This document shows, one piece after another, positions 18,614-28,135 of a stretch of 64,000 nt of DNA. The notes under the pieces were generated by a model. The model did no database searches, had not been told where the DNA came from, and saw only the letters and a list, made by a program, of their open reading frames with translations. Position numbers and translations under genes: made by a program. Every line of letters begins with the position of its first letter. Within the stretch, counting starts at the first letter, position 1. This DNA comes from Candidatus Gastranaerophilales bacterium (lineage in GTDB: Bacteria; Cyanobacteriota; Vampirovibrionia; Gastranaerophilales; Gastranaerophilaceae), in contig CALVAQ010000001.1 in NCBI GenBank assembly GCA_944325595.1, positions 89,380 through 153,379 of the forward strand. Direction: 5' to 3'.

Positions 18614-21600
18614 CTAAACCGGTATATCATTGAGCTGACAGAAGGCTTTGAATGAAGCAAAATTTTTCTTTGTTTCTTCTGTTTGTTCCGGCAAATCAAG
18701 CCCCTCAAGAAGCGTTATTGTTTTTTTGTATGTAGTTATTGCATTTTGAGCATAATTTGCTTTGTTCTGCGGTTTCTGGGTGACCATCTCCTCAAGATAT
18801 TTTGCATAAAGCTGATAAAGCGAAACTTTGAGGTATTTCATGTCGTATTCTTTTATTATCATCAGCGATTTTTCTATATACATTTTGACAGCTTCCATAT
18901 CTCCTTTTATGAGGTATATTTCGGCCATGAGTTTTTGATAAAGAACCATAAAATAGTAGTTGGATATTCTCGGATTTTTTGCCACATCAAAAGCTTTTTG
19001 AGAAATTTCAAGCGCTTTGTCCGTACCTTCCGTAATCAGTGTAATTTTTGCTATATAGTACCAGCAGAGCATTGCGCCTATAGCTATTTTTTCTCTGGCA
19101 AAAATTGTCACCTGTTCATTGAATATGTCAAGTGCTCTTGAGAGGTTTCCTTCTTCCTGCAGAACTTTGCCAAGAAAGACTTTCAGGAGATTTTTGACAA
19201 GTACGTCGTTGTAGTTGTTTGCAAATGTGACAACCGAATACAAATCCTGTTTTATATTTTTCCACTCACGTTTAAATATTTTGTTCAGTATATTTGTAAA
19301 ATTCCACATAGAAATAATTTCAGGTTCTACAATTTCTTTTGAGGTTTGCTGCGTAAACTCGACCAGAATGTCTTCTGATTTTCCGATTTCTCCCTGTATT
19401 GAATAAGCCAGAGCCTTTGTCAGTTGGAGTCTTTGCAGATAGTTTTTGTTATCAACATTGTTCTTCTCAACTATTTCATCAATAACGGCGAGAATATCAA
19501 AAGCTTTTTTGTTGCCCTGAGAAATCAAAGCCATTGCAACAATCAAGTTGCATTCAAGCCATGTTTCATAAATTACATCCATTGATATTCCGTTATTCGG
19601 AATTAAACCTGACAGAGCCTGTTCAACTATTGGAATAATCTCAATCGATGCCAGATTGTATATTTCTTCAGCATTACCGATACAGAACATTGCCTTGAGT
19701 TTTTTGTATTTTATCAAAGCGGTTTCGAGTTTTTTCTCGGGGGTTTCTATGTATTTCAGTATTGTGTTTATTGCTTCAATTACACCGTTGTAGTTTCCTG
19801 TCAAAGAACAGCTTTTTGAAAGGTATCCGGAAAGTTCAATAATTTTTGGCTGGTTGTTTACTTTCATGGCATTTGTAATTGCATTTGAAAGATACGGTAT
19901 TGCCTCAGCCGGTCTGGATTTGTACAGCAGTTTGCCCAAACGTTCCTGAATGTTGTTTATTATAACGGTGTTGTCCTCGGGGTTTACCTCCTGTGCAATT
20001 TTGAGACACTGTTTTTGAGAAAGTGTCCACAAATGCTCATCACCAAGATATGCACAGAGTTTTATATTTTCCGTCCAGATATTCAGGGCAAGAAGCTTCT
20101 GGTTCAAATTCTGTGCAATCAGTGCTTTAAGGGCATTGCTCGAGAGGGTAAATGAGTTGATTATATCGTATATTTTTTCATTCAATACGACAAAATCTTT
20201 GTTTTGTTTAGCTTTTTCGTATACAAATTTCCAGAGAATTGTGTTTTTGAATTCAAAAATGTTGTTGTTAAATTGTGAAATATAAGCCGATGCACTCAAA
20301 AGGCCGATAGTGTTCTGGAAGTCTTCCGGCGATTGTTTCATAATAATTTCAAGCAGTCTGACATTGAATTTGTTGCCCATAATAGCTGCCGTACACAGTG
20401 TTCTGAAAGCGAGCGGCTGTTTTTTCTCGAGATATTTCAAACGATATGATAAAATTTCGTAGATATTTCTGGGAACACGTTTTTCAAGCGGTGTTTGTCT
20501 GTATTTTATTGCTTTTCCGTCTGTTGTAATAGCTTTGTATTCGTTTAGCAGTATGAGGATTTGTTCTATATATGCACTGTTTCCCTGCGAGTATTTGAAA
20601 ATTTCTTCAAACATATGCTGCGGCAGCGGATTTGTGCCGTTGAAAAACATTTTTATCAGATTGTTTGTATCTGTTTTTGTCAGCTTTGCGAGTCTGATAT
20701 CTTCGTACTGGTTTTGTGCAATTTTTTCGGAATAGAAATAGCCCTGCGTTATGCGGTTGTCTTTGTAGGTAATAATTAATTTTATATTTTCGCCCAGATA
20801 TCCCTGATCTACAAAATGTGACAAAAATGCATAAGATGCACCGTCTATCATATCAAAGTCATCTATGACAATAACAAGTTTTGCTTTTTTGGATATTTCA
20901 AGAATAATTCTTTCAAGCAAAGCAAAGGTTGTATCTTTGTTTATCAGGATATCTTCAAAGTTTGAACCCAGATGAGGATACAGGAAATTAAACAGATTGA
21001 AAACTTCTTCCTGCGACAGGGCGGGGAAAGTCGATGACAGCATGTTTTTTGCCTGTTTTATAAAGTCCTGAGACATATTTGAAAAATTAGGCATATTGAA
21101 AAATGTCAAAATCATTTCCTGAAATATGCCGTACGGACTGATTTGAGAGTTTGCCGAACATTCTCCCCAGAGCCAGGCATAATTTTCGTGCATGAAATCG
21201 GCAAACAGGTATTTCAAAACCGTTGATTTTCCGCTGCCTTCTTCTGCGCTCATTCCGATTATAAATTTATTCGGATTTCTCACGGCTTTTACTATCAGAT
21301 TTTTGCATTTCATCTGATCGGCAATCTGATTTGGTATTTCCGTTAAGGGCTCTTCATTTTCTTCTTCTGTTTCGGCAGTTTGTGTCTGTTCGGGCTGTTC
21401 TGTTTCTTCTTTTGATTCGGTTTCTGCGTTTTGCGGTTTTTGTTCCTGATTTTTGTTTTCGTCTTGAACAGGCTTTTCTTCCGGCGTTTCCAGTGATTGA
21501 GCTTCGGCTGTAGTTTCTTCTTCATCGGAGGAAAGTATCATTTCATCGAGCTCTTTTTCTTCCTCTTCCTCGGGATTTTTGTTTACTTCTTCTATTTCAT

Positions 21601-22057
21601 CTGCCGCCTCTTCAAAAGATTCTTTGAGCAGGCTGTCATCTTGCTCATACTCAGAAATCTCTTTAAGCACGGAATTATCGGTTTCTTTGTCCTCAAAATC
21701 GCTCAATTCAAACTCATCAACTTTGTGAAGTATAATCGGAGAATCATCGTCATCAACAGTTTTTGATGTTTGTGTATTAACAGAACTTTTAGAGTCCGTT
21801 AAATCTGAAACAGATACAAGTCCCTCTTCCAATTCAAAAGCATTGCCGCATTTTCGGCAGTTTTGTGCATCCGGTACATTCACACAACCGCAGGCTATGC
21901 AAAATTTTAAAAGCTGAAGTCCGCAGCCCTCGCAAAATTCTGCTGTTATCGGATTTTTTGCACCGCAAATCGGGCATACAGTTTTGACTTTTGTATGACA
22001 AAAACTGCATGTCAAAATGTCATCAGCTATTTCTTTTTTGCATTTTGGGCAACGCAT
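18614..22057 (-). CDS. STAND-type P-loop NTPase with N-terminal triple zinc ribbon, acidic linker and C-terminal TPR-like array
   Basis: aa 3-71 contain CPKC..CSFC, CPIC..CEGC and CIAC..CRKC. Walker A is AEEGSGKST (21221-21247) and Walker B is LVIVIDD (20858-20881). About 700 aa of helical repeats follow. Confidence 0.8.
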   Translation of the reverse strand: MRCPKCKKEIADDILTCSFCHTKVKTVCPICGAKNPITAEFCEGCGLQLLKFCIACGCVNVPDAQNCRKCGNAFELEEGLVSVSDLTDSKSSVNTQTSKTVDDDDSPIILHKVDEFELSDFEDKETDNSVLKEISEYEQDDSLLKESFEEAADEIEEVNKNPEEEEEKELDEMILSSDEEETTAEAQSLETPEEKPVQDENKNQEQKPQNAETESKEETEQPEQTQTAETEEENEEPLTEIPNQIADQMKCKNLIVKAVRNPNKFIIGMSAEEGSGKSTVLKYLFADFMHENYAWLWGECSANSQISPYGIFQEMILTFFNMPNFSNMSQDFIKQAKNMLSSTFPALSQEEVFNLFNFLYPHLGSNFEDILINKDTTFALLERIILEISKKAKLVIVIDDFDMIDGASYAFLSHFVDQGYLGENIKLIITYKDNRITQGYFYSEKIAQNQYEDIRLAKLTKTDTNNLIKMFFNGTNPLPQHMFEEIFKYSQGNSAYIEQILILLNEYKAITTDGKAIKYRQTPLEKRVPRNIYEILSYRLKYLEKKQPLAFRTLCTAAIMGNKFNVRLLEIIMKQSPEDFQNTIGLLSASAYISQFNNNIFEFKNTILWKFVYEKAKQNKDFVVLNEKIYDIINSFTLSSNALKALIAQNLNQKLLALNIWTENIKLCAYLGDEHLWTLSQKQCLKIAQEVNPEDNTVIINNIQERLGKLLYKSRPAEAIPYLSNAITNAMKVNNQPKIIELSGYLSKSCSLTGNYNGVIEAINTILKYIETPEKKLETALIKYKKLKAMFCIGNAEEIYNLASIEIIPIVEQALSGLIPNNGISMDVIYETWLECNLIVAMALISQGNKKAFDILAVIDEIVEKNNVDNKNYLQRLQLTKALAYSIQGEIGKSEDILVEFTQQTSKEIVEPEIISMWNFTNILNKIFKREWKNIKQDLYSVVTFANNYNDVLVKNLLKVFLGKVLQEEGNLSRALDIFNEQVTIFAREKIAIGAMLCWYYIAKITLITEGTDKALEISQKAFDVAKNPRISNYYFMVLYQKLMAEIYLIKGDMEAVKMYIEKSLMIIKEYDMKYLKVSLYQLYAKYLEEMVTQKPQNKANYAQNAITTYKKTITLLEGLDLPEQTEETKKNFASFKAFCQLNDIPV

Positions 22058-22155
22058 TTGAAAAAACCGCTTAGCTAAACTGAGATTATTATATTATAAA
22101 GTAAAATTAAATAACATCAGGTATAAATACTAAGATTTTAAATTAAATCTTCAAA

Positions 22156-22737
22156 TTAATTAAAATGTTTTTTTACAATCTGAGAAATCTCAACCAGCCT
22201 TTTGCTGATTTCTGACTGGGAAAGATTGGTTTCCTGCGCTATTTCTTTCTGTTTTTTCTCTTTAACGTATCTCAGATAGAAAATTTTCAGATATTCTTTT
22301 GAAGGGTCATTCTTTTGAGCGACAAGAACAATATCAACAATTTTTTGAAGAATATCTTTTCTTACAATTTTCTCTTCAAAAGAATCTCTCGGGTCTTCAA
22401 TTTCATATACAAAAGATGAAGAAATTTCTTCTGCTTTTTCTTCTTTTTCGGCATGTTTTGCCGGTACGGGATTTATGAGAATTTCTTTTGTGCTGATGTA
22501 TTTGTTTTCACGTCTTCTGACTCTGCCGTTTTCTTTGAGTACAGTCAGAATAGCCGTATTTGCAACTTTTGTCATGTATGCACTGATAGAGTTTATATCA
22601 GCGTTTTCCAGCAAAAAGTGCGAGCGTTTATATGTTTCGGAGCAAAAGTCTTCAAGAAGGTCTTCATTTCCGCTAAATTTGTTATTAGTTTTGATTAATT
22701 TTTCTATAAAATCCCGTTGTTCTTGTAATGTATCCAA
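22156..22737 (-). CDS. Divergent ECF-like sigma-70 family protein
   Basis: Region-2-like DLLEDFCSETY ... AYMTKVANTAILTVLKENGRVRRR and a region-4 HTH LKIFYLRYVKEKKQKEIAQETNLSQSEISKRL, separated by an acidic linker. Confidence 0.6.
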   Translation of the reverse strand: MDTLQEQRDFIEKLIKTNNKFSGNEDLLEDFCSETYKRSHFLLENADINSISAYMTKVANTAILTVLKENGRVRRRENKYISTKEILINPVPAKHAEKEEKAEEISSSFVYEIEDPRDSFEEKIVRKDILQKIVDIVLVAQKNDPSKEYLKIFYLRYVKEKKQKEIAQETNLSQSEISKRLVEISQIVKKHFN

Positions 22738-22795
22738 TTCTCTAACCCAATTCTATATATATACATCAAGTAACTGATAATATAATATCATAGAA

Positions 22796-25432
22796 TTAGA
22801 AATTTATAATTAAAGTTAAGAAATAATCGGATTTGAAATCTTTAACTTTGGGTACGCTTACGTATTTTAGAGTATTTTTAATACTTCTTAATACGATTTC
22901 ATCAATCTGGTCAGAACCGCTGGATTCCAGTACCTGCATACCTTTCATGGTATTGTCCTGAGCAATTGTGAAGGAAACTTTTACTATATTGTTAAAGTTT
23001 ATATCAGCAGAATTTGCCAAATCATTTTGCAAATTCATCTGAATATTTTTACCTGCGGTTTGTAAATATTCCTTAACAGAAGCATCTGCTGCAAGTTTTT
23101 CACTTACCTGCCATGACAGTTTTGTAATAGTAATAGCAGCAGGTTTGTCAGAGAATGAATTTGCCATTGATTTGTTGATATCTTGAGAAACGGCAGGTGT
23201 CTGGTCTTCTTTTTGTGCAGCATTGTTTGTTAAATCAAAGAACTCGCCGTCTTGATTTGCTGTTTCAAGAGCTGTGTTGTCCGGTGTTTTTGAATTGTTA
23301 AAGTACCATGAAACGGCTCCGCCGCCTGCAAGAAGAAGCAATATTGCCGCACCCACAATAATTTTCTTTGTAGCGTTTACAGTTTTTTCAGAAACGGGCT
23401 CTGCTGCGAGTTCAAATTGAGCCGGGTCGTTGCCGTTTTGTTCGGGAACAGTTGTGCCGCTATAAAGAGATTCTATAGTTTCATCTTCTTGAGACGGTTC
23501 TTCTACTGTTTCCGCAGACGGTTCTTGCTGCTGTGAAGGAGCATCATAACTAAATGCCGTAAAATCATCCGGCTGTTTTCCTTCTTCTCCTGCCGGTTCA
23601 CTATCAAGCACCGGTGTTTGTTCTTCTTGCTGTTGTTCTGTGGTATCGTTTCCTTCAGAAAGCAATGCCATCAAATCATCATCAAGAAGAGCTTGAATAT
23701 CTTCATCTGTTTGAGAAAGTTTGTCGGTTCCATCATTATCTTCTTTTTCCGGTTCTTCTACAGTGTTTTCCGTATTTTCAGAAGTTTCTTTTTCCGCAAT
23801 TTCCTCCGGTTGTTGTTCTTCTGTTTCTTCTTCATCATAAACAAGTTCGACCGGCTCTTGAGAATATGAAACCGGAGTTTCTTTTATTTCTTCCTCGGCA
23901 ACATCTTCTGTTTTTTCTAAATTGTCATCATTAGATATCTCAGCTTCTTGAACCGGTTCAACATCTTGTTCGGGTTCAATTTGCTGCAGATCGTCTTCTT
24001 CTGTTTTTAACGGTTCAAAGTCTTCTTTATTTTCTTCAAGCTGCTGCAATTCTGCTTCCGACTCCGGTGAAGTTTCTTCAAGTGTTTCCGGTTCCTGAAT
24101 AAGAGGCAGAGAGTCTTCCTCTTCTTGCAAAAGAAGATTATCTTCGTCATTTTGCAGTGCAATAAGATTTTCTTCTTCAGGGGTTTCAAGTCCGGGCAGC
24201 GTATCTTCTGTATTTAAGTCTGTAAAATCTTCTGTTTCTTTTTCTTCAAGTGATACATCATTTTCTTCTTTTTCGGGTGTTTCGTCTTCATCTGTAGTAT
24301 CTTCGCTTTGTTCCTGATCTTCAGATAAATCTAACAGAAAATCGTTCAAATCATCGGATTCTTCTTCTTTTTCCGAATCATCGGAAACAGTCTCTTCAAG
24401 AAGGGGTGCACCCATAGGCAAAATCGGAGGTAAATCCTCTGAAACATCAAGAGTTTCGGGTTCTTCTTCCGGGTGTATTACCGGCTCTTCGACATCATTT
24501 TCCTGCAAGGATTCTTCTTCTTTTTCTTCAACAATTTCTTCTGTTGTTTCTGTCATGTTTTCTTCCAATGGCTCTATAGGCAGCTCTTCTAAAGATTCTT
24601 CAGAATTTTCTTCTGAAATATAAGGCAGTTGTTCATTAAATTCTGCGGTAGTTTCTTGCTCATTCTCAACAACGCCCATGTTTGCCAGCGCTGCTTCATC
24701 AACTTCCTGTTTGTTGCCTGACAAGACACTAAGTGTGCTGTCATTCAATAGTTCAGGATAGTTTTTGACCTGTGTAACAATTGCATCAAAACCGCCGAAT
24801 TCACAAAAAACTTCACGACAGACGGGACAGGCTATTACATGTTTCATAAAATAAACATTTTCGCTGTCTGATAGCTCGCCTTCCACAAAAGAAGAACACA
24901 ATTCTTTTACTTTTTCATGGTCAGCGGCAGAAAATATTTGTTGTTCTTGTTTAATTTCTGCCAAAAAGACTTTCAGTTCTTTAACAGGCGTCAAAACAGA
25001 AACATTATACGGAAGATATTCAGTGTTTGACTGTACGGGTGACAGGTCTTTTGTCGGCACAAAACCGAGAATTTCGGCAGATGAAAGGTCTTTTGAAAGC
25101 TGTACAACTACATATGCACAGGGTTTTGCATCATATTTTTCCTGAATTTTAGGAATGCAGAAAGTTTTTCCGTCAACGCAAAGTCTTACGTCAAGGCGTA
25201 TTCCGTTAATATAAATATCAGCAAATTCAAGTTTTTCGGCAAAAGAAGGAATGCGATACAGGCTGTGGTTTGTTTCAACTTCGAGACCGGATTCAGAGAG
25301 ATATTCTGCGGCAACATTTGCGATAATATTCAGGGCATATGCTCTTTTTCTGAGAGATTTGTCTTCAATTTTTGTTGAAACAATTTTTGCTTTTTCAATA
25401 CATGCTTTGCTAATATTTACATTTTCTGCCAT
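22796..25432 (-). CDS. Single-pass membrane anti-sigma-like protein: DUF1822-like N-domain, zf-HC2 motif, ~440-aa acidic linker, TM, extracytoplasmic C-domain
   Basis: KRAYALNIIANVAAEYLSESGLEVE and AYVVVQLSKDLSSAEILGFVP resemble the cyanobacterial DUF1822 family. HVIACPVC (24818-24841) is an H-x3-C-x2-C motif. The TM is at aa 691-711 (23300-23362). Confidence 0.7.
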   Translation of the reverse strand: MAENVNISKACIEKAKIVSTKIEDKSLRKRAYALNIIANVAAEYLSESGLEVETNHSLYRIPSFAEKLEFADIYINGIRLDVRLCVDGKTFCIPKIQEKYDAKPCAYVVVQLSKDLSSAEILGFVPTKDLSPVQSNTEYLPYNVSVLTPVKELKVFLAEIKQEQQIFSAADHEKVKELCSSFVEGELSDSENVYFMKHVIACPVCREVFCEFGGFDAIVTQVKNYPELLNDSTLSVLSGNKQEVDEAALANMGVVENEQETTAEFNEQLPYISEENSEESLEELPIEPLEENMTETTEEIVEEKEEESLQENDVEEPVIHPEEEPETLDVSEDLPPILPMGAPLLEETVSDDSEKEEESDDLNDFLLDLSEDQEQSEDTTDEDETPEKEENDVSLEEKETEDFTDLNTEDTLPGLETPEEENLIALQNDEDNLLLQEEEDSLPLIQEPETLEETSPESEAELQQLEENKEDFEPLKTEEDDLQQIEPEQDVEPVQEAEISNDDNLEKTEDVAEEEIKETPVSYSQEPVELVYDEEETEEQQPEEIAEKETSENTENTVEEPEKEDNDGTDKLSQTDEDIQALLDDDLMALLSEGNDTTEQQQEEQTPVLDSEPAGEEGKQPDDFTAFSYDAPSQQQEPSAETVEEPSQEDETIESLYSGTTVPEQNGNDPAQFELAAEPVSEKTVNATKKIIVGAAILLLLAGGGAVSWYFNNSKTPDNTALETANQDGEFFDLTNNAAQKEDQTPAVSQDINKSMANSFSDKPAAITITKLSWQVSEKLAADASVKEYLQTAGKNIQMNLQNDLANSADINFNNIVKVSFTIAQDNTMKGMQVLESSGSDQIDEIVLRSIKNTLKYVSVPKVKDFKSDYFLTLIINF

Positions 25433-25620
25433 TAGTTTTCTCCAATTTTCTTCTATATAAATATAGATTACAGATGTAAAAAAAATATTCCAAAACCATA
25501 AAAAAGGTGTTATAATGTAACAAAATGTTTCATAATTAGACTCATGTTTGAAACATGGAGCAATAAATTTTCTTTCTGCGTTTTATAAGATTATGAAGTG
25601 TAAAAAATAGGAGTGTTAGT

Positions 25621-26025
25621 ATGTCAGTAAACTTTTCAACAATCCAGCCTATGAGTCAGGCAACAATTTCCAAAGCTCCGGCTTATTCAAAAACAGCAGG
25701 ACAACCCGCAGCAGCAAATACACTTGTTGGTCCGGCAGGTACTTATGAACCCAAACAGAAAAAAAGCCGCTGGTTTTTAAAAACTCTTATCGCAGCAGCA
25801 GTAGTTCTCGGCGGTGCAGCACTTTTGAGAGGTAAAGTCGGCGTATTTAAGGATTTTGATGCAGCAGCCAAATTAGCAGATGATGCAAAACTCCTCGACA
25901 AAGTAAAACATTACGGTAAAAAAGCTGTTGCTGTTGTCGGTGATTTTACAAAAGATTATGCAATGAGAGGTTATAACTGGGTTAAAAACCTTTTTACAAA
26001 AAAACCCGCTACACCTGCAGCATAA
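25621..26025 (+). CDS. Small single-pass membrane hypothetical protein
   Basis: A 134-aa protein with a ~50-aa N-terminal tail and a G/A-rich TM (LKTLIAAAVVLGGAALL). RBS AGGAG lies upstream and a terminator downstream. Confidence 0.55.
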   Translation: MSVNFSTIQPMSQATISKAPAYSKTAGQPAAANTLVGPAGTYEPKQKKSRWFLKTLIAAAVVLGGAALLRGKVGVFKDFDAAAKLADDAKLLDKVKHYGKKAVAVVGDFTKDYAMRGYNWVKNLFTKKPATPAA

Positions 26026-27059: not shown

Positions 27060-27205
27060 ATCCTTATTTTCCTGAAATTTATTACTTATTTATACAATAA
27101 ACAGAGATTTTTATCATTTTGTAAAACGATTTTGCGGCATTCATGCAATTTTTTTATCAATTTTGTTTTTATTTGTACATAAGTGAAGTTAAGGTAAGGC
27201 AAAAT

Positions 27206-28135
27206 ATGCACATATCTCCCGTTAATGTAAATTATCATCCGTCATATCAAAATATTAGTTACAAAAACAAAACTGTGCAGTCTCCCGTTGAGACACAAAA
27301 AGAGGATAAGAAAAACTCAAAAGGAGCAAAAATCGGTATTGCTGTAGGTGTAGGAGCTGCACTTGTTGCAATTGGTGCAGTACTTGTTTCAAGAGGAAAA
27401 GCTCTTCAGAACAAAAAACTGCTCTCTCAAATTCCCGCTGATTTAAGAACCCGTTTTGAAAAACTGAAAGGTTTGTCAGGAGAAGAATTTACACAAAAAG
27501 CATATGCAGAAATGGTCGAGCATATGGGATTGAAAGGTATTGCTCCCGAGAAAATTGTAATCAAAGGAGCAGATTCTTTGAACGGCGTTCAGGGAGGATA
27601 TTCCTGTTTAAAAAATACTATAGAATATACCGAGGGATTTTCAAAAATGTCGCAAAAAGCTCAAATCGGGCTTTTGTCACATGAATTGCATCACTGCAGA
27701 CAGTTTTCAAATATGCTGCGTACAGAAGGTATCACTGTAGAAAAATATGTTGATGCAACTGCGGAAAACCTGATTAAAAATATGCAAAATGACATTTCCA
27801 ATTTTTCTTTCCGTATGTCATATAAAAGAGCACAAGAAGCGGGAAAACTCGATGAGTTTTTGGCAAAAGTAAAAAAACAGGCAGTAGATACATTTACGGA
27901 GGATGTGAATAAAAATTACAGTCATGTTTTGAAAATGCCAAAAATAAAAGCCGATTCACCGGAAGGAAAAAAGGCATTCGAATATCTGAAAGCTATGAGA
28001 GAATATGAGGGGTTGGACTCAATATTCGGATTTGCATCAGAAGCGTACAAAAATAATCTTCTTGAAGTTGAAGCATATGATTTGCAACACAAAATAGAAG
28101 ACCTGTTTGAAAAATTTATGCAAGCTACAAAATAA
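27206..28135 (+). CDS. Single-pass membrane hypothetical protein with an HExxH motif
   Basis: The start is set at the ATG at 27206. The protein has an N-terminal tail, a G/A-rich TM (KIGIAVGVGAALVAIGAVLV) and HELHH at 27680-27694. I recognise no family. Confidence 0.55.
   Translation: MHISPVNVNYHPSYQNISYKNKTVQSPVETQKEDKKNSKGAKIGIAVGVGAALVAIGAVLVSRGKALQNKKLLSQIPADLRTRFEKLKGLSGEEFTQKAYAEMVEHMGLKGIAPEKIVIKGADSLNGVQGGYSCLKNTIEYTEGFSKMSQKAQIGLLSHELHHCRQFSNMLRTEGITVEKYVDATAENLIKNMQNDISNFSFRMSYKRAQEAGKLDEFLAKVKKQAVDTFTEDVNKNYSHVLKMPKIKADSPEGKKAFEYLKAMREYEGLDSIFGFASEAYKNNLLEVEAYDLQHKIEDLFEKFMQATK

Follow-up and report, generated by a model that had tools for sequence, protein, structure and literature searches.

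Sigma factors of the extracytoplasmic function (ECF) class form a major route of bacterial signalling, and their known control runs through anti-sigma factors, fused extensions and kinases. This analysis concerns a three-gene module in a stretch of 64,000 nucleotides (nt) from a Candidatus Gastranaerophilales bacterium (contig CALVAQ010000001.1, positions 89,380 to 153,379), hereafter the window, whose own numbering is used for all coordinates. The module encodes a predicted membrane anti-sigma factor (gene 1), a predicted divergent ECF-type sigma factor (gene 2) and a zinc-ribbon nucleoside triphosphatase (NTPase) of the STAND class (signal transduction ATPases with numerous domains; gene 3). 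It is real, ancient within its lineage and uncharacterised, and could plausibly represent a new mode of ECF control.

The three genes

The open reading frames (ORFs) of the trio all lie on the minus strand, at 22796-25432 (878 residues), 22156-22737 (193 residues, TTG start) and 18614-22057 (1147 residues), with gaps of 58 nt between gene 1 and the sigma gene and of 98 nt between the sigma and STAND genes. A consensus terminator scan found no minus-strand hairpin with a T-run in either gap, so that the layout agrees with the initial annotation of this DNA, which had described three co-directional genes with these gaps and no terminator between them. The genes and their domains are the following.

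22796-25432, minus strand: gene 1, predicted single-pass membrane anti-sigma factor of 878 residues (DUF1822 N-domain, zinc anti-sigma (ZAS) domain, acidic linker, transmembrane helix, TonB-C-like domain); ORF, architecture conserved in all orthologues
24920-25417, minus strand: DUF1822 N-terminal alpha/beta domain, residues 6-171 (PF08852, orthologues, hhalign, AlphaFold2)
24713-24919, minus strand: predicted class-I zinc anti-sigma domain, residues 172-240, H172-x25-H198-x3-C202-x2-C205 (zf-HC2, PDB profile matches, invariant ligand residues)
23393-24697, minus strand: acidic, length-variable, predicted cytoplasmic linker, residues 246-680 (435 residues; content of aspartate plus glutamate (D+E), length variation)
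23300-23362, minus strand: predicted transmembrane helix, residues 691-711, with KK before it (sequence reading, position in orthologues)
22799-23197, minus strand: predicted extracytoplasmic TonB-C/TolA-like domain, residues 746-878 (TonB_2 and TonB_C profiles)
22156-22737, minus strand: gene 2, predicted divergent ECF-type sigma factor of 193 residues with a TTG start; sigma2-like residues 22-84, acidic linker, sigma4 residues 127-192 (TIGR02937, Sigma70_r4_2, Foldseek)
18614-22057, minus strand: gene 3, predicted zinc-ribbon STAND NTPase with tetratricopeptide repeats (TPR), 1147 residues (ORF; DZR, AAA_16 and TPR profiles)
21836-22057, minus strand: three zinc ribbons, residues 1-74, six CxxC pairs (DZR 48 bits, 12 invariant Cys)
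21338-21817, minus strand: acidic, variable STAND linker, residues 81-240 (36% D+E, conservation 0.16-0.23)
20738-21274, minus strand: AAA_16 P-loop core, residues 262-440, with Walker A AEEGSGKST and Walker B LVIVIDDFD (profile, conserved motifs)
18617-20200, minus strand: C-terminal helical/TPR (MalT-like) array, residues 620-1147 (TPR_MalT, TPR_12; conservation 0.7-0.92)

All the elements listed for gene 1 in the initial annotation are present, namely a DUF1822-like head, the motif HVIACPVC (H-x3-C-x2-C), a linker rich in aspartate and glutamate, one transmembrane helix and an outside domain. When the whole protein was scanned with Pfam, TonB_2 (23.8 bits, cut-off 22) was the sole match besides a zf-HC2 hit near its threshold; the first 253 residues scanned alone matched DUF1822 (PF08852) with 35.1 bits (cut-off 25) over positions 2-161 of the 370 in the profile. 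Among 20 orthologues, DUF1822 was detected in 19 and zf-HC2 in 14 (best E 8.1e-7). Further, hhalign aligned residues 14-155 to residues 28-163 of a canonical Nostoc DUF1822 protein with a probability of 93.7%. Because both the profile and the hhalign matches end in the N-terminal half, and the full-length profile of 370 positions is not matched, gene 1 is predicted to carry the DUF1822 N-domain only and not to be a canonical DUF1822 protein. The AlphaFold2 model of residues 1-245 (pLDDT, the predicted local distance difference test, 77.7; pTM, the predicted template modelling score, 0.71) shows an alpha/beta domain to about residue 160, followed by four helices between residues 169 and 222.

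The helical segment holds the residues that point to an anti-sigma function. The ZAS signature consists of H-x3-C-x2-C with a further His or Cys 23-26 residues upstream, and in gene 1 H172, H198, C202, C205 and R206 are invariant across 20 close orthologues and three relatives that are 27-32% identical; the four zinc-ligand positions also showed no exception in a set of 15 sequences reaching down to 27% identity. Among PDB sequences, the best matches to a profile restricted to the anti-sigma domain (81 residues) were RsiW (E=9.8e-4, aligned along the entire domain) and RslA (E=6.8e-3), with DdvA (E=0.2) and RsrA (E=0.56) also within the top seven at non-significant values. At the level of structure, Foldseek returned no significant match for the N-terminal model, the comparison with RslA giving a partial match with a probability of 0.57. 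Residues 172-240 are thus best described as a class-I zinc anti-sigma domain of the ZAS type, with predicted binding of both sigma factor and zinc.

The remainder of the protein would link this domain to the envelope. The acidic linker (residues 246-680) contains 36.8% D+E and no arginine, and orthologues range from 852 to 1274 residues because its length varies. Within the variable linker, two short motifs are conserved: QEPVELxYD(D/E)E near residues 525-535 (about 23843-23875) and IQALLDDDLMALLS at residues 579-592 (23657-23698), the consensus of the latter being IQxLLDDDLxALLS. The transmembrane helix lies about 188 residues before the C-terminus in most orthologues. Beyond it, the TonB-C-like domain is the best conserved part of gene 1; TonB_2 and TonB_C were each detected in 13 of 13 orthologues, the window protein scored 23.8-27.9 bits for TonB_2, and matches to TonB structures in the PDB were weak. 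Read from its sequence, the topology is a single pass with the N-terminus inside, which would place the linker and anti-sigma domain in the cytoplasm and the TonB-C-like domain outside.

Several further features of the family were noted. In the DUF1822 N-domain, D72 and D81-x-R83 are invariant and are aligned with D...E-x-R of the canonical Nostoc DUF1822 protein. Foldseek matched the model of this domain weakly (probability <=0.16) to the PD-(D/E)xK nucleases HincII, influenza PA-N, AspBHI and DrdV; the matches were not adopted, and a nuclease-like fold is possible and unproven. One family member (P0159) consists of two tandem DUF1822-N plus helical modules, and another (P0202, L047:8001-13991) reaches 1996 residues owing to a giant linker.

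The sigma protein of the window falls just under the curated cut-offs for TIGR02937 (41.1 versus 42.9 bits) and Sigma70_r4_2 (25.1 versus 25.7 bits), the TIGR02937 alignment covering residues 17-188. At family level the assignment is firmer, as all 14 sampled homologues matched TIGR02937 (sigma70-ECF; best E 2.7e-16) as well as Sigma70_r4_2 and Sigma70_r4. The top Foldseek matches of the AlphaFold2 model (pLDDT 71) are all ECF sigma factors (probability 0.8-0.99), among them M. tuberculosis SigH, SigE and SigL, E. coli SigE, AlgU and SigW, with alignments of about 190 columns at probabilities of 0.9-0.99; the modelled sigma4 superposes on region 4 of E. coli SigE (2h27) with a TMt of 0.67. We conclude that the product of gene 2 is a predicted sigma factor of the ECF type, in which sigma2 is unusually divergent and the linker between the domains is acidic. 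The TTG start codon is shared by most of the gap sequences that were aligned.

Gene 3 likewise contains what had been described for it: three CxxC..CxxC ribbons, an acidic linker, Walker A and B motifs and TPR-like repeats. The six CxxC pairs lie within residues 3-70, and all 12 cysteines are kept without exception in 31 orthologues as well as in distant relatives. Walker A (G274-x-GKS) and the Walker B residues D399, D402 and D405 are conserved. Among 14 STAND orthologues, including distant ones, DZR and AAA_16 were each found in all, TPR_12 in 13, TPR_MalT in 12 and nSTAND_NTPase5 in seven, while no CHAT or caspase match was obtained in any of them. The C-terminal 530 residues are 70-92% conserved, the region being 70-96% identical within Gastranaerophilales. 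The protein also aligned locally with the AAA_16 part of TIGR03903, and a comparison with PDB sequences gave nothing significant and no solved close relative. Gene 3 is accordingly predicted to encode a STAND protein of the cytoplasm that combines a TPR array with an intact AAA_16 P-loop. The assignments from which the analysis started (sigma, anti-sigma, DUF1822, zinc ribbons, STAND-TPR) are all upheld by tests at profile, family and fold level.

Conservation of the trio and its non-coding elements

Synteny was sampled by a sigma-profile scan of one genome per species of the GTDB taxonomy, which yielded 38 loci, mostly named Candidatus Gastranaerophilales, the others carrying generic or apparently mis-assigned names of metagenome-assembled genomes (Clostridium sp., 'Cyanobacteria bacterium'). 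Gene 1 lies directly upstream of the sigma gene in all 36 loci with upstream DNA, and the STAND gene directly downstream of it in 29 of the 36 Gastranaerophilales species loci with downstream DNA, the 29 including the most divergent ones (sigma 44-60% identical). The neighbours of the locus are housekeeping genes such as era, scpB and tuf, unlike those of a mobile island, and each recovered locus holds one copy of the module.

The arrangement extends to more distant relatives. In all seven second-tier members that were looked up, the order is gene 1, sigma gene (191-195 residues), large P-loop NTPase gene (959-1164 residues), and the flanks are unrelated. DZR was detected in six of these seven NTPases, and AAA_16 or AAA_22 also in six. 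In the four distant loci compared with the window, identity amounted to 40-46% for the sigma factor, 23-39% for the STAND protein and 30-36% for the N-terminus of gene 1. The gap between sigma and STAND genes shrinks to 6-12 nt in three of the seven, and in a fourth the stop and start codons overlap (loci L046-L048 and L052). A disrupted order in related genomes had been named at the outset as grounds for discarding the module; instead, the trio is kept in 29 of 36 Gastranaerophilales species and seven of seven distant relatives with differing flanks. As the order is kept across deep divergence amid unrelated flanks, we regard this synteny as strong evidence for a predicted functional triad. 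Judged by sequence, the cassette is conserved across gut Melainabacteria and is a core-genome feature of Gastranaerophilales and of more distant relatives.

An exhaustive HMMER profile search placed the N-terminal module of gene 1 in 753 representative clusters at 50% identity, 700 of them at E<=1e-10, and nearly all of the top 150 listed clusters are proteins of 600-1200 residues with the module match at the N-terminus. The module is not narrowly confined to one lineage, whereas the initial annotation had suggested that it may be lineage-specific. Word-index searches with the same region returned five (single sequence) and seven (profile) truncated fragments, which reflects a limit of the index and not rarity. 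Within the window, no Rfam family reached its gathering score anywhere in the 64 kb, and the PADLOC defence models gave no meaningful match for any of the four proteins compared with them.

Conserved promoter-like elements lie in both gaps and upstream of gene 1.

22782-22790, minus strand: extended -10-like box TGATATTAT in the first gap, right after the gene 1 stop (TGnTATAAT in the same place in 25 of 39 loci)
22088-22098, minus strand: -10-like box TATAATATAAT in the second gap (TATAAT 26-38 nt before the STAND start in 30 of 31 loci)
25465-25495, minus strand: promoter-like block TTTTGGAATATTTTT-N7-CTGTAATCT upstream of gene 1 (conserved pattern TGGAAT-N12-17-GTAATC)
25508-25532, plus strand: block reading TGTTATAAT (extended -10), facing the divergent small ORF (TATAAT invariant)

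The region between gene 1 and the divergent gene (25465-25565) contains three conserved blocks, namely TTATTGC, the plus-strand TGnTATAAT, whose sole variable position is the 'n', and TTTTGGAAT...GTAATCT. The window has a single copy of the pattern TGGAAT-N12-17-GTAATC, and 35 of 44 loci also have one each, in the upstream region of gene 1. ECF promoters follow the grammar GGAAY ... CGTA, with a spacing of 16-18 nt in those that have been characterised. The GGAAT...GTAATC block is an ECF-promoter-like candidate whose spacing fits neither the ECF type nor the sigma-70 type cleanly.

A candidate sigma/anti-sigma switch and its alternatives

The evidence tips modestly towards reading the locus as an ECF-type sigma/anti-sigma switch of the core genome that has a STAND NTPase as its conserved partner. 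In the resting state, the sigma factor would be kept at the membrane by the anti-sigma domain. Release would follow an envelope cue read by the TonB-C-like domain and passed on through proteolysis or a conformational change, and oxidation of the zinc site might act as a further trigger. The STAND protein could provide a second, cytoplasmic input, in which a ligand on the TPR array would lead to NTP-dependent oligomerisation; the clustered zinc ribbons might in turn bind either the DUF1822 domain or the sigma/anti-sigma complex and alter the availability of the sigma factor. Gating of sigma release by STAND oligomerisation, which the initial annotation had put forward as a possibility, is a step that we purely infer. 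If the GGAAT...GTAATC block is a sigma-dependent promoter of gene 1, its combination with a constitutive -10 box before the sigma gene would create negative feedback.

A number of observations weigh against this reading. Some family members are without the Cys ligands, as in the gene 1 protein of the distant locus L048, which has no H-x3-C-x2-C, and in P0159. Regions 2 and 4 of the sigma factor had both been called recognisable at the outset; region 4 stands in 14 of 14 homologues, but region 2 is far less evident, with Pfam Sigma70_r2 matching only one of the 14. Further, the sigma-family profile matches no PDB sequence at E<=0.01. Seven of the 36 species keep gene 1 and the sigma gene next to unrelated convergent genes, with no adjacent STAND gene; adjacency of the STAND gene is therefore not compulsory, and in those species the protein is either dispensable or encoded elsewhere. 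The conserved -10-like boxes in both gaps speak against a simple single operon, since they make internal promoters likely; the trio genes may each have their own promoter, and read-through is also compatible with the layout. As for the candidate promoter of gene 1, the spacer in GGAAT-N15-GTAATC is shorter than that of characterised ECF promoters, and on the opposite strand the block also reads as a -35 element (TTCCAA) for the small ORF's promoter.

Known systems share parts of this architecture. Like SigW-RsiW of B. subtilis and SigL-RslA of M. tuberculosis, the locus pairs a two-domain ECF-like sigma factor with a single-pass membrane protein, whose cytoplasmic helical domain carries H-x3-C-x2-C and an upstream His as RsiW and RslA do. 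In contrast to both, the anti-sigma domain here is not N-terminal and is preceded by a 170-residue DUF1822-type domain; a 435-residue acidic linker lies before the transmembrane helix and a TonB-C-like domain outside; the anti-sigma gene comes first, then the sigma gene, with a -10 box between them; and sigma region 2 is highly divergent and a STAND NTPase is the conserved third gene. With FecI-FecR-FecA and TonB, the locus would share an anti-sigma factor of the inner membrane with a periplasmic domain that could reach a partner in the outer membrane, together with the TonB_2/TonB_C match. However, gene 1 has no FecR domain and, unlike TonB, places its transmembrane helix (residues 691-711) just before the C-terminal domain, with about 690 cytoplasmic residues and neither a Pro-rich periplasmic spacer nor an N-terminal anchor. 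The STAND protein resembles MalT/LAL regulators and PknK-like AAA_16-TPR proteins in that a MalT-like TPR array follows an AAA_16 P-loop whose Walker A and B motifs are intact, but it differs in having no LuxR/helix-turn-helix (HTH), kinase or cyclase output, in its three zinc ribbons and acidic linker at the N-terminus, and in being encoded next to a sigma factor.

The nearest precedent is the gene neighbourhoods described by Kaur, Iyer, Burroughs and Aravind (eLife 2021, PMC8195603), in which EACC2-caspase genes occur together with DUF1822 and an ECF sigma factor, and in which the third protein varies at its C-terminus, where STAND NTPase domains can be present. Unlike in those systems, there is no EACC2 or caspase/CHAT domain here and the third protein begins with zinc ribbons, the DUF1822 N-half is fused to an anti-sigma domain, a transmembrane helix and a TonB-C domain, and the genes lie in the core genome rather than in a variable island. 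On plasmid5 of Nostoc sp. HK-01 (AP018323.1, L049:6185-11121), two CHAT-domain genes enclose a canonical DUF1822 gene (215 bits), which has a 238-residue neighbour without a Pfam match. This neighbour was considered as a relative of the sigma factor described here and was not detectably related to it (hhalign probability 0.2).

The alternatives differ chiefly in what the STAND protein does. A conventional envelope-stress ECF pair under regulated proteolysis, beside which the STAND gene is merely co-located as a regulon member or an independent regulator with its own promoter, is a tenable explanation that we consider less probable than the partner reading. It would account for the TATAAT box upstream of the STAND start in 30 of 31 loci, for the seven of 36 species without an adjacent STAND gene, and for RsiW, a substrate of regulated proteolysis, being the closest solved relative of the anti-sigma domain. 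It is harder to reconcile with adjacency in seven of seven distant loci amid unrelated flanks, at 40-46% sigma and 23-39% STAND identity in the four loci compared, and with the 6-12 nt gaps or stop/start overlap, which suggest translational coupling. Alternatively, the STAND protein could be a transcriptional co-activator, a 'split' MalT/LAL regulator whose NTP-driven oligomer recruits or stabilises the sigma-RNA polymerase complex through its zinc ribbons and does not act on the anti-sigma factor. Its AAA_16 plus TPR_MalT core is that of MalT/LAL regulators, it has no HTH of its own while the adjoining gene provides the sigma4 HTH, and binding to nucleic acid or RNA polymerase is common among zinc ribbons; yet neither a DNA-binding domain nor a motif for RNA polymerase binding was identified in the protein, nor any PDB or Pfam link past generic zinc ribbons, and we consider this role unlikely.

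Two further explanations question the nature of the locus itself. It could be a diverged relative of the conflict systems that combine DUF1822 and an ECF sigma factor with a caspase or STAND protein, with the STAND protein sensing an invader and the sigma factor switching on defence. The theme of DUF1822, ECF sigma and a third protein is on record (PMC8195603) and two CHAT-domain genes flank the canonical DUF1822 gene of the Nostoc plasmid, but the single-copy, core-genome position amid era, scpB and tuf, the strong purifying selection on the STAND C-terminal region (70-96% identical) and the lack of any effector domain, CHAT/caspase domain or PADLOC match make this origin highly improbable. 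Hardly more credible is the view that neither assignment holds, gene 1 encoding no anti-sigma factor and gene 2 no functional sigma factor, so that the zinc site would be a structural element of a membrane scaffold and gene 2 an HTH regulator or adaptor. Such a view could draw on the window proteins scoring just below the curated cut-offs for zf-HC2, TIGR02937 and Sigma70_r4_2 and on a nearly undetectable Sigma70_r2; against it, the thresholds are passed at family level, the top PDB matches are specifically anti-sigma factors for gene 1 and ECF sigma factors for gene 2, and the strict pairwise adjacency fits sigma/anti-sigma logic.

The reading of the locus as a sigma/anti-sigma switch with a STAND partner can be taken further, namely to STAND NTPases as an unrecognised class of ECF regulator, with the DUF1822 N-domain docking the anti-sigma factor to the STAND protein here and, in cyanobacteria, to caspase/CHAT proteins instead. 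This extension is tentative, and we would not call it probable. It would have the zinc-ribbon head of the oligomerised STAND protein engage DUF1822, so that a cytoplasmic ligand signal leads to sigma release and the switch integrates two inputs, envelope and cytoplasm. The conserved linker motifs could serve as docking peptides, with the STAND TPR array as one possible partner. QEPVELxYDDE is intact in 21 of the 29 STAND-adjacent loci versus one of the seven without an adjacent STAND gene, and this association is a lead and not evidence, as the STAND-less loci form only about three clades; LLDDDLLALLS showed no correlation with STAND adjacency over the same 29 and seven loci.

The literature search found the combination of a membrane anti-sigma factor and an ECF sigma factor with a STAND protein described nowhere, no STAND NTPase reported as a regular ECF sigma partner, and no work linking Melainabacteria with sigma factors; the main text of the ECF classification paper (PMC7826278) mentions neither DUF1822 nor AAA/STAND partners. 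The claim of a combination without a described system thus holds for the exact trio in the literature searched, whereas DUF1822 together with an ECF sigma factor plus a third signalling protein had already been noted (PMC8195603). A STAND protein kept beside a sigma/anti-sigma pair across deep divergence points to a possible new form of ECF control, and the fusion of the DUF1822 N-domain to an anti-sigma domain is evidence of the Rosetta-stone kind for an action of DUF1822 proteins on ECF sigma factors. If the docking proposal were true, a function would be assigned to DUF1822, a cyanobacterial domain of unknown function. Further, the module offers a testable entry point to regulation in gut Melainabacteria, and can be studied in a heterologous host.

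The divergent small gene

Upstream of gene 1 and facing away from it lies a small gene.

25621-26025, plus strand: divergent single-pass membrane protein of 134 residues (tblastn matches in 40 of 44 loci)

The sequence of its product is characterised by MSVNFSTI...KKSRWFLKT followed by the transmembrane segment. A small divergent ORF is also found upstream in six of the seven distant loci and, among the three that were inspected, resembles the 134-residue protein in two (L045 and L046), with no such resemblance in L048. The protein is a possible fourth member of the module. Further along the plus strand, an ORF of 330 residues (27143-28135; N-terminus ISPVNVNY...KKNSKGAKIGIAVGVGAALVAIGAVLVSRGK) is organised like the 134-residue protein, with a short N-terminal stretch, a Lys-rich stretch, a transmembrane segment and RGK, and the two may belong to one paralogous family.

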